Shown here piece after piece: positions 6,264 through 24,840 of a DNA stretch of 64,000 nucleotides. The notes below the pieces were generated by a model that was not told where the DNA came from, made no database searches, and saw only the letters and a program-made list of their open reading frames with translations. Position 1 is the first letter of the stretch. Each line of letters begins with the position of its first letter. The position numbers and the translations under genes were made by a program. The stretch comes from Harriotta raleighana. Its lineage: Eukaryota. The stretch lies in contig JBNZDD010013728.1 in the NCBI GenBank assembly GCA_050575255.1, forward strand, positions 3,131,694 to 3,195,693, in the 5' to 3' direction.

Positions 6264-6473
6264 GAACACTCAGTTGGTCATGCAACACCTATGGAGAAAC
6301 GAAAAGTGAGTCAACGTTTTGGGTCCAGAATCCTTCGTCAGAACACAGTTCATGGACCCAAAATGTTGACTCACTTTTCCTTTCTCCATAGATGCTACCT
6401 GATCTGCTGAGTGTTCCCAGTGGTTTCTGTTTTTGTTTCCGATTTCCAGCATCTGCAGTATTTTGCGTTTTCG
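6264..6473. mobile_element. Penelope-type palindromic element, decayed hammerhead motifs
   Basis: Inverted arms GAACACTCAG...GAGTCAACGTTTTGGGTCCA / TGGACCCAAAATGTTGACTC...CTGAGTGTTC. Homologous to 22300-22523. Confidence 0.8.
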
Positions 6474-21003: not shown

Positions 21004-22364
21004 CTTCCATGGATCGTGAGCAATTCACATCATGGGCACGTTTTCTGCAGTTATCGGATACTTAGTCAACCCTGTTATTGTCACAGTGGGGAATCCTCAG
21101 AAAGACTTAATCCCTGGAACAATCTGTGTCTCTGCATGTCTCTGTATTTTCAGACTCCCAACAGATTGCTTAAATATAAAGGGATTTTGAGGTGTAATAC
21201 ACCAGACAGTGTATTCCGTTTTTTATCGGGTACATGGGATCTCTGTGGGTAGCCAATACACATCTTCAGTTGTCAACTATCCACTTTGATATGTTTAAAA
21301 CACTCAAAACTGTGTGTCCATTTTGAACTTTGAAGTTACAATCCTTTTTTAATCTCTCCCATAATAATATTCCTTCATTTGGTATAGTGATATTAGCACT
21401 TTGATAAGAGATATTCACAGGAGTTTACTGTTGTAACGGAGCTTTCCACAGTAACAACAAGAAATTGTGTTTATATAATGCCTTTCAAGTCGGGAGGACA
21501 TCACAAGGACATTGAAGGCTTAGCCTTAAAATCTGTGACAAGTTATCGTACTTTAGATTTTAGCAGACCCTATACTGTACTTATTGTCTACCAAATTTTG
21601 CAATGCACTCTCAATTATTAATCTTATCTTGATAATATTTCCACTGAAAAATAAAAATCCCCCCAAAATCCCCAGAACAATTGAGTCAGTTATGGAGAGA
21701 TATTCGATATTTTACAATAGGTTAATGCTGACAAAATAAATTAATTCTAGCTACTTTTAGCTCCAAACCAGACTTGTTATACCAATTTCAGCAATCTGTG
21801 AAACTCATTGTGATCTGGGGAAAACTTCACTTATGGCAAGACTTTGCATATCGACATCTCTGATTCAAGCCACATGATATAATCAGGGCATGCACAAGTG
21901 ACTTCATTATTTAATAGCAAGAAAGCATTTTGGTACCAATTTATCACTTAGAAGAATCTAAAAGCACTTTAAATTGTTTTTAAAGTAATAACTGTTGAAA
22001 TATTTAAAGTAGTAACTGTTGAGTGTAACTACTGTCATTTTGTATACAATCATTTTGATAGAGCAAGGCCTCACAAACAGTCATGATGTGAATGTCCAAT
22101 TTTATCTGAAAGGTTTTGACATTAGTCATTGATCTTACAGTTTTGACATTCATAGCCTGTCACAGTGGGAAGTCAGTAAATTGTGGGTTCCACCCCCACA
22201 TTAGGGCTTTTTGCTCATGATCTAGGCTGATGTTGTATCGCAGTGCTGGGAGTGCTGCATTGTCAATGATACTGTCTTTTGGATGGGACATTAAACCAAT
22301 CAAAACAAGTTGCTGGAGAAACTCAGCAGGTCAGGCAGCATCCATGGAGAAAGGAAGGTGAATC

Positions 22365-22393
22365 AACGTTTCGGGTCCAAGACCCTTCGTCAG
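22365..22393 (-). ncRNA. Minimal type I hammerhead ribozyme core (putative)
   Basis: Minus strand reads CTGACGA-A-GGGTC-TTG-GACCC-GAAA-CGTT. Confidence 0.6.
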
Positions 22394-22415
22394 AGCAACC
22401 CTTCGTCAGAACGTT

Positions 22416-22444
22416 CTGATGAAGGGTCGTGGACCCGAAACGTT
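22416..22444 (+). ncRNA. Minimal type I hammerhead ribozyme core (putative)
   Basis: CTGATGA-A-GGGTC-GTG-GACCC-GAAA-CGTT: catalytic boxes CUGANGA and GAAA flank a 5-bp stem II. Stem I is imperfect. Confidence 0.65.
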
Positions 22445-22788
22445 TACTTACTTTCCTTTTCTCCATGGATGCTGCCTGACCTGCTGAGTTTTCCCAGCAT
22501 CTGTAGTATTGTGTTTTGTTTTTCATTAAACCAAGCAAACTGACTCTACCTGTTTAGGTGAACGATAAAGATCCCATGACACTATCTGATGAGAGAAAGG
22601 GGATTCTCTCAGTACCCTGGCCAATAATCCTCCAGTACAATGAAATCTTTAACATCCACTTGAAAAGGCAGATGGGACCTTGATTTGTTATTTGAAGGAC
22701 AGCACCCTCAACAATGAAGCACATCCCTAGCTCTGTACTTAATAATAATAATCCTTGCATTTGATATTGTGCCTTATCACATCTTATC

Positions 22789-23783
22789 ACCGACCCATTT
22801 CCAGCCTCCCTTTTCTGTCAAAGGTCCTTGAAAGAGTCGTTGCCTCCCAGCTTCACTCTTTCCTTTCATCCCACTCCCTCCACGAGCCCCTCCAATCGGG
22901 CTTCCATGCTGCCCATAGCACGGAAACTGCTCTGGTCAACGTCACAAATTATATCCTGACCATTTGTGACCAGTGCTCCCTCTGCCACCTTATCCTCCTC
23001 AAACTATCTGCCACCTTCGATACCATGGACCATTCGATCCTCCTCCCCTGCATCTCCTACCAACTCAACCGTCAAGGTTCTGTCCTTGACTGGTTCAGGT
23101 CCTATCTTTCACACCGTCTCCACTTTGTGTCTGCCAACAGCTTTTCCTTCAGCTCTTGCACCATTGTGTGTGGCGTTCCTCAGGCCTCTGTCCTTGGTCC
23201 CCTGCTCTTCACCCACTACATGCTCCCCCTCGGTGACATCATCTGCAGATGCTGGGTAAATTTCCACATGTAAGTGCATGACACCCAACCCTATCTCTCT
23301 GCTTCACCCTCAACTCCAGAACTACCAGCGTCCTGACTGCCTGCCTGTCTGACATCAAGTCCTGGATGAGGGACAACTTTCTCCAGTTGAATGTCAGCAA
23401 GACTGAGGCCCTCCTGATTGGCTCGAGTCAGCACCTCCCCACCTCAGGTGCTGGCAGCATCAGCATTCAAGGCTGCACACTCCATCTCATGAAGTCAGTC
23501 AGGAAACTGGGTGGCTTGTTTGACCCTGAACTGTCCCCATACTGTGAAACTCCATCCAACAGTCCCTTCGCCTCGCTGCCTCCTTTGCCTCCTTCAAAGC
23601 TGGTCTCAAGACCCTTCTTTTCAATCGTGCTCTCTGCCGCTCTCCCACATCTCTGTCTCCCCTCCCCCCTACCCTGCCCCTCCGCTATGCTCGGGTCCCG
23701 ACCCCTGACTGTTCAGTTCCTTGAAACGTCTTTCCGACGTGAAAGGCACTCTCTAAATGTAATTTTTTTGTTGTTGTTGTTGC
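22789..23783 (+). mobile_element. L2b copy with decayed RT domain (pseudo-ORF2), internally deleted
   Basis: YHRPISSLPFLSKVLERVV, QSGFHAAHSTETAL, GVPQASVLGPLLF, broken YADD (HM*VHDTQ), NFLQLNVSKTEALLIG, (GTT)n tail. Confidence 0.92.
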
Positions 23784-23825
23784 TTTGAACATATGTTCCA
23801 CATATCCTGCTGGAATATCCTGTCA

Positions 23826-24840
23826 ATCAACAACAACAGCACTTGTGTAGCGTCTTTCACATTGAAGGGAAGTCCCAAGGCATTGGCAGCCAGTATTTCA
23901 GACCCAAGCTGGGGTCGGGATCAGAGAGATTGAAGGGAAAGAAGGGGAAGGATGGTGATCTATGGCACAGTCGAAGAGGAGGGTCTTGAGGCTGAACTTG
24001 GAAGCCAGGGAGGGAGCGAGGTGGATGATTTGCGAGATGGAATTCTAAAGGTTGGGGGCAGAGTGGCTGATGTCTCGCCCACCTATTGTGGGGTGGGTGG
24101 GTTGGGCACATGGCGCAGATCGGAATCACTGATTAGAAGCAGCAGATAGGTTGGTAGGGGGTTAGTAGGGTGAGTACCAGGATCTTGAATTTAATCCTCT
24201 GAATGATGGGAACCCAGTGGAGTCAGGCGAGGATGGGGTTGCGGAGCTTGCTGTGGGAGAGGACGTGGGCTGCAGAGTTCTGGATGATCTGCAACCTGCG
24301 GAGGGAGAATTTTGGAAGGCCGACATGCAGCGGCCTGATAGGTGATGTAGTAGTGGAGTTGGACAATGTTGCAGAGGTGAGGGAAGACAGAGTGGGTTAT
24401 GGCATGGATTTGGGGGAGAAAAGACAGTTGAGGATTGTACACCTAGGTTCCTGACTGACTTGCTGAGGGTGCAACTATAGAGGTTGATACTGCCAGTACC
24501 TGAGGTGTGAAGGTGCTGGTGCAAGCCAATCAGGAGGGCCTTGGTCTTGTTAACATTCAACTGTAGAAAGTTGGCTCTCATCAAGGACTTGATGTCTGAC
24601 AAGCAGCGAACTGAGGGGTGATGTGGTGGCAGAGTTGGTCAGGACAGTGTTGGTCGTGGAATTGAGGGTGGAGGCAGAAAGATAGAGTTGGGTGTTATCC
24701 GCATTCATATAGAAGTCAACCCCCATGGCTGATGACGCTGTCACCAAGAGGGAGCTTGGTGACATAAATGTTGAAAAGGAGAGGGCAAAGATCAGAGCTC
24801 AGGGGGACATCACACATGGCAGTGCGAGGGCTGGAGAAGA
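23826..24840 (-). mobile_element. L2b copy, tail-to-tail with 22789-23783
   Basis: FYMNADNTQLY (decayed YADDTQLY), NFLQLNVNKTKALLIG, (CAA)n tail. Confidence 0.9.

Follow-up and report, generated by a model that had tools for sequence, protein, structure and literature searches.

We note that the 224-bp palindromic insert in the window (the whole stretch of 64,000 nucleotides that was analysed) is almost certainly an inverted-end product of a Penelope element. The best explanation of the whole is probably a pair of short copies of the element's hammerhead-bearing 3' end, likely laid down in one landing at which both ends of the target acted as primers (Table 1). The locus itself is one presumably dead copy among thousands, and its value rests on the end statistics of the family, whose counts separate the models for Penelope inverted repeats and one-sided tails.

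Table 1. Features of the insert and its surroundings; arm positions count from 0 at hammerhead C3 and refer to a majority line that served as the common scale
Feature	Coordinates	Strand	Remarks
Older dispersed repeat split by the insert	22170..22640	+	~80% to relatives; bounds approximate
Left target-site duplication	22289..22299	+	11 bp, CATTAAACCAA; present once only in uninterrupted host-repeat copies
Short arm	22302..22394	-	pLTR end from -1 to about +95; tail absent
Minimal type I hammerhead core	22365..22393	-	stem II of 5 bp; cut predicted to follow 22365; poor stem I in this copy
Junction filler	22395..22412	.	18 nt: 3 added bases plus a repeat of -3..+11, the initial 15 nt of the arm
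Long arm	22413..22523	+	spans -3 to +134 of the pLTR end, tail included; 29 bp deleted between two CCAGCA repeats
Minimal type I hammerhead core	22416..22444	+	cut predicted to follow 22444; mutation in the first pair of stem I
Right target-site duplication	22524..22534	+	11 bp, CATTAAACCAA
Second head-to-head copy of the same family	6267..6471	.	older, more decayed; own uneven junction, arms from -3 and +11

The preliminary description, made from the letters of this DNA, had seen a 224-bp insert within an 11-bp target-site duplication, and both copies of CATTAAACCAA were located. The near-perfect palindrome that it described stands in so far as the arms are 87-93% complementary and the 224 bp between the duplications fold into a single hairpin (-156.1 kcal/mol, z -20.6, equalled by 0 of 200 shuffles), but the arms are unequal, one reaching about +95 and the other +134 with its 29-bp internal deletion. 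Similarly, the 13-bp duplication at the centre (ACCCTTCGTCAGA, starting at 22382 and 22398) is present but private to this copy. A genome search, at a threshold set by the analyst, found that relatives of the right flank run into the left flank with a single target site in 9 of 19 other copies of the host repeat; among the sampled family loci themselves no empty host site was found. By its likeness the interrupted repeat may be a SINE/Deu (DeuSINE) element. Just downstream, at 22752-23788 and 24162-24638, lie decayed LINE-type RT pieces that by look are unrelated to the insert; the ORF fragments at 22752-23788 have what look like L2/CR1-type RT motifs and do not look like Penelope.

Each arm holds one core of the form CUGA(U/C)GA-A-GGGUC-NUG-GACCC-GAAA-CGUU, on the plus strand from 22416 and on the minus strand from 22393, as had been proposed, and the core, bulged A and stem II on both arms support its identity as a minimal hammerhead. 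The type I features (core boxes, stem II, bulged A and palindromic stem III) recur in at least 2,295 genome matches to a relaxed form, against 4 for the reversed control. Rfam gave no hammerhead match on the insert at E up to 10, the best matches being miRNA precursors below threshold; palindromes of this sort can readily be mistaken for MITEs or microRNA hairpins. Stem II showed no covariation within this one family, whose decay looks neutral, nor any compensatory change in other data sets; differences numbered 5/302 in the core, 63/1535 elsewhere and 24/335 in stem II, figures that are biased by the alignment edge. Stem I is imperfect on both arms relative to the family form, and the folding of the insert into one hairpin supports the suggestion that the cores are masked. 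With both stems I damaged and both cores predicted to be hidden, this copy is probably inert, since a read-through transcript would fold into the core-hiding hairpin.

The Penelope origin that had been suggested is borne out by the linkage of the arm to an RT + GIY-YIG ORF: the same arm ends copies that carry both. Going upstream of the arm, these long copies present a 3' UTR of ~270 nt, the GIY-YIG endonuclease, a CX4CxxC linker (CHRRRCNTC), a thumb and RT, so the hammerhead lies in a pLTR near the 3' end, ~270 nt past the ORF stop. The RT piece has 10 homologous proteins (E 3e-71 to 3e-47), PF00078 being found in 9 of them and PF01541 in 2, along with PF26215. An RVT_1 match in the long copies is weak (E 0.016); the Pfam GIY-YIG matches of the endonuclease piece (E 2.4e-4 and 1.3e-3) fall short of the curated cut-off, and the same piece matches the endonuclease end of homologue P0005 at E 3e-34. 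The endonuclease motif VVY..C..C..YIG (VVYCIRCSRCGLLYIG) has two Cys between GIY and YIG and two later His, as in the CCHH motif. RT followed by a C-terminal GIY-YIG is thus found in single long elements and is absent from this locus; all copies seen are broken, and no intact or full-length copy was found, the longest arm being ~1.9 kb. According to PMC8557442, a CX2-5CxxC linker ahead of the endonuclease marks the Neptune/Nematis clade, and the parent element is Neptune-like as judged from this linker motif; the homologues of the RT piece bear no clade names. Of 13 long loci, 6 have head-to-head arms that combine a long with a short 3' end, and with arms of up to 1.9 kb these place the insert at the small end of a size series. 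The inverted pLTR with an optional tail of 30-40 nt, a feature of EN+ Penelope elements, was found as well.

Three observations on single copies and frames may be added. One kilobase-scale head-to-head pair (L148:598-4257) has RT and endonuclease on one arm, with internal repeats at N breaks. An apparent full-length tandem (L179, G000:C13511:755200-765100) was set aside as probably an assembly artefact: 2.6 kb are present twice, at 99.7% identity, on either side of an N gap. From +48 the family has an open frame, MLPDLLSFPS, that continues through the tail; as other PLEs do, the family may have the N-terminus of its ORF within the pLTR, and no copy reaching the ORF was found.

The family is large. 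A hammerhead 29-mer had at least 674 exact genome matches and a 31-mer downstream of it at least 2,196, with 0 for either reversed control; these counts are lower bounds, and are also slightly inflated because several single-N joins repeat sequence. Two samples were drawn. The first 100 listed places of the 31-mer gave sample A (100 arms in 88 insertions), and the first 90 of the 674 listed hammerhead places gave sample B, with 88 left after removal of one duplicate and one contig edge; both consist of first listed places, small contigs first, and are not random. An inverted partner was found in 37 of the 88 insertions of sample A, the other 51 being solo arms. The family therefore takes the forms of solo arms and head-to-head pairs, from ~100 bp up to several kb, in thousands of copies.

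The evidence on how the pairs arose lies in the ends of the arms. Arm 3' ends are bimodal, falling at two T-rich sites, ~+98 and ~+134, that are 36 nt apart and enclose the PLE tail. Solo arms comprised 50 with the long end, 47 with the short end and 14 with a decayed one. Of 63 pairs, 9 were dropped for a decayed end, and 49 of the remaining 54 join one long to one short arm (p 4e-10 versus one half). Within the 49 the more truncated arm was the long one in 27, the short one in 13 and neither in 9 ties, and a start at +55 or later was seen in 10 long arms versus 1 short arm, a contrast that is inflated because a very short short arm escapes detection more readily than a tail-only long one. 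In five pairs the long arm is tail-only, and its start, at +89..+100, meets that of the partner, which is the classic twin-priming shape. In PAc of the anole the tail is similarly bounded by two RT start sites (PMC11167929). On this pattern of ends we lean towards twin priming. Against it, the short arm is the more truncated one in those 13 pairs, and in most pairs the overlap amounts to tens to hundreds of bases, whereas the breakpoints of L1 twin priming are placed within 1-10 bp (PMC11702581), so that displacement or the use of two RNAs must be added to the scheme.

Alternatively, the same element might have acquired its second arm by self-priming or fold-back, on a cDNA hairpin or an antisense template, the latter being what PMC3846280 proposes for inverted pLTRs. 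The arm does offer the means: a mini-palindrome at its 5' edge, TCAG-TT-CTGA, together with the palindromic stem III, could let a cDNA end snap back, some junctions lie at such motifs, and many fillers re-copy the arm's start. The concordance of the arms is also as expected from fold-back. Subfamily letters outside CpG were common to both arms in 40/43 at two sites (shuffled 0.66 and 0.53; 58 pairs), concordance being absent at 2 of 9 sites (one a CpG, one at the arm's edge); concordant arms come from one source or have been converted, and gene conversion could account for them. Fold-back, however, gives no reason for an arm to end at the +~98 site of the solo arms, nor for the pairing of long with short in 49/54, and tail-only inversions that barely overlap their partner cannot derive from copying of the first cDNA. 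We consider it unlikely.

The 5' ends are no less uneven. Per base, their frequency at 0..-9 was 0.107 in sample A and 0.111 in sample B, versus 0.011 at +41..+7 and 0.004-0.010 further upstream, i.e., arms stop at the hammerhead 5' edge ~10x faster than elsewhere. The ends are spread over -1..-5, matches to the element fade between -3 and -6, and fewer than half of the short arms (30 of 63) keep the A at -4. In contigs of other data sets, loose ends fall at -5..-3 and at +132; these contigs are silent on starts, strand and expression level. No peak of 5' ends was present at the predicted cut site, +29 (6 of 100 ends at +26..+32), for which reason cleavage-product RNA was rejected as the template.

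We favour, with slightly less assurance than for twin priming, a reading of the hammerhead 5' edge as the start of a capped RNA, on the strength of motifs and end letters. A TATA-like TTAAAA stands 28-30 nt ahead of the A at -4 in AGTT in 41 of 56 long copies, 11 being without it, and that A sits within CCAGTT, which looks initiator-like. At the base before AGTT (-5), where the element has C, copies have G 170 times versus A/T 141 times, while the control one base further gave G 25 versus A/T 311; ~26% G would be expected by base composition. In full-length L1 an extra G marks a cap that was copied (PMC11702581). A T lies ahead of the extra G in 25 of 30 copies (L252-L281), against a background of ~37%, so that a cap alone is insufficient as an explanation; the T may stem from an A added after cap-C, from CpG decay or from microhomology. 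The extra G itself may arise by microhomology with the partner arm (L269), and in 2 of ~10 resolvable solo cases it lies inside the target duplication. Copies with the G belong to several subfamily haplotypes, by which a single short master behind them was rejected. The promoter of Drosophila Penelope, described in PMC2377424 as TATA-less and internal, also speaks against the capped-start reading.

A further possibility is that the pile-up marks a 3' splice site, with a branch-like CTAAY near -42 and CAG|TT, and that the short arms are copies of spliced RNA. The CTAAY and CAG motifs are indeed present in long copies, the short arms have letters at -3..-5 like those at the end of an exon (G 45, A 30, C 28 of 63), and the intron of Drosophila Penelope ends at helix I (PMC4209133). 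Against this, among 84 solo short arms the target duplication stood no more than 40 nt from the hammerhead in 34, at a distance of 41-400 nt in 3, and was not found in 47 (mismatched control 4/252); the 47 count against the main reading as well. Nor was a common upstream exon found among the solo arms, and the contigs of other data sets are without a splice-type joint ending at this AG. The G excess at -5 also misfits the consensus of an exon end. Splicing is, in our view, unlikely, and slightly less plausible than fold-back.

Under twin priming from a capped RNA, events would most likely run as follows. The pLTR promoter (TTAAAA at -28 to -30, CCAGTT) would yield a capped RNA beginning at or near the A of AGTT, with which stem I opens, and the two T-rich 3' ends (+~98 and +~134) would be RT start sites like the two measured in the anole. 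The element's protein would cut both target strands in a stagger of 10-17 bp, and one target end would prime at each internal site, with copying directed toward the likely capped 5' end of the RNA. The +134 primer would either stop at the second site, leaving a tail-only inversion, or continue by displacement or on a second RNA, and the two cDNA ends would then be joined head to head with private fillers. The 18-nt filler seen here would likely reflect re-engagement of the template after run-off: a second run over the first 15 nt that ends at -3 again fits repeated run-off at a physical end. The ribozyme would be a passenger at this step, with templates uncut, as in PAc. The palindromes were likely built anew at each landing, as the exact ends of sister copies suggest. 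We can more tentatively envisage a programmed version, for which we would put the chances at slightly short of even, in which an enzyme dimer uses two fixed sites on a capped RNA starting exactly at stem I and the cap is kept as the extra G. If this were true, the start site and both priming sites would be recorded in the genome by the thousands of short palindromes, contrary to the published model of antisense self-priming.

A discrete "ribozyme-MITE" family copied as whole palindromes, one of two options left by the preliminary description, is very improbable: many palindromes are similar in size (~190-250 bp) and each has a target duplication, but the 22 closest to the insert differ from one another in centre and filler (22/22) and their clear target duplications range over 9-17 bp, which together rule out a MITE copied as one unit, and ends vary, solo arms outnumber pairs, sizes reach kilobases and copies with RT + GIY-YIG have this arm as their 3' end, in place of fixed termini, a fixed duplication length and a uniform interior. 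The other option, an inverted-pLTR product of Penelope insertion, holds.

Much of this is shared with known systems. In accounts of EN+ Penelope insertions, namely Adineta Pen2a_Av (PMC3846280), those of PMC8557442 and Drosophila Penelope (PMC2377424), we find head-to-head pLTRs, a one-sided tail of 30-40 nt, a duplication of ~9-17 bp, palindromic junctions and TATA-/Inr-like pLTR motifs; here, by contrast, there are two pLTR heads without an ORF, in thousands of copies, with 5' ends piled at one edge. PMC8557442 loosely credits the endonuclease for the inverted repeats and tails. The minimal hammerheads of metazoan PLEs (PMC4209133) agree in the type I core, in the additional base ahead of stem II, in G10.1-C11.1 and in palindromic 15.2-16.2, and likewise occur for the most part singly or as opposed pairs, with 100-700 bp between the partners there; the predicted ribozyme here differs in a stem II of just 5 bp and in pairs as close as ~20 bp. 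PAc of Anolis (PMC11167929) also has two internal RT start sites bounding a tail, both target strands cut and extended, and uncut RNA as template with the ribozyme cut unnecessary, as is proposed here, but belongs to the Poseidon clade and has an ORF starting in stem II, and its published model as consulted does not include inversions. L1 twin priming (PMC11702581) has in common the inversion with an intact target duplication and the extra G at full-length 5' ends; its second priming site is variable and its arms barely overlap, whereas in this family the site is fixed and the arms mostly overlap. Non-LTR retrozymes (bioRxiv 10.64898/2026.07.22.740005) are similarly ORF-less, hammerhead-bearing and pLTR-derived, but are described as head-to-tail tandems; this insert is head-to-head without a tandem array, and sampled loci were solo arms or inverted pairs save for a few local duplications.

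The literature thus already has opposed hammerheads, and inverted pLTRs of which one side alone carries a tail. The long+short pairing, the pile-up at the 5' edge, the spacing of the TATA-like box and the extra G are apparently new within the papers searched. In the searchable literature, which excludes subscription journals, Repbase/Dfam entries and supplements, we found no twin priming or cap signature applied to Penelope and no report of palindromic minis of this kind in sharks or chimaeras.

Finally, seven loci (L012, L014, L076, L114, L128, L132 and L179:7325) are independent insertions into a similar target, TTCACTTTACAGTATA, inside another common repeat; such a shared target is possibly a hotspot.
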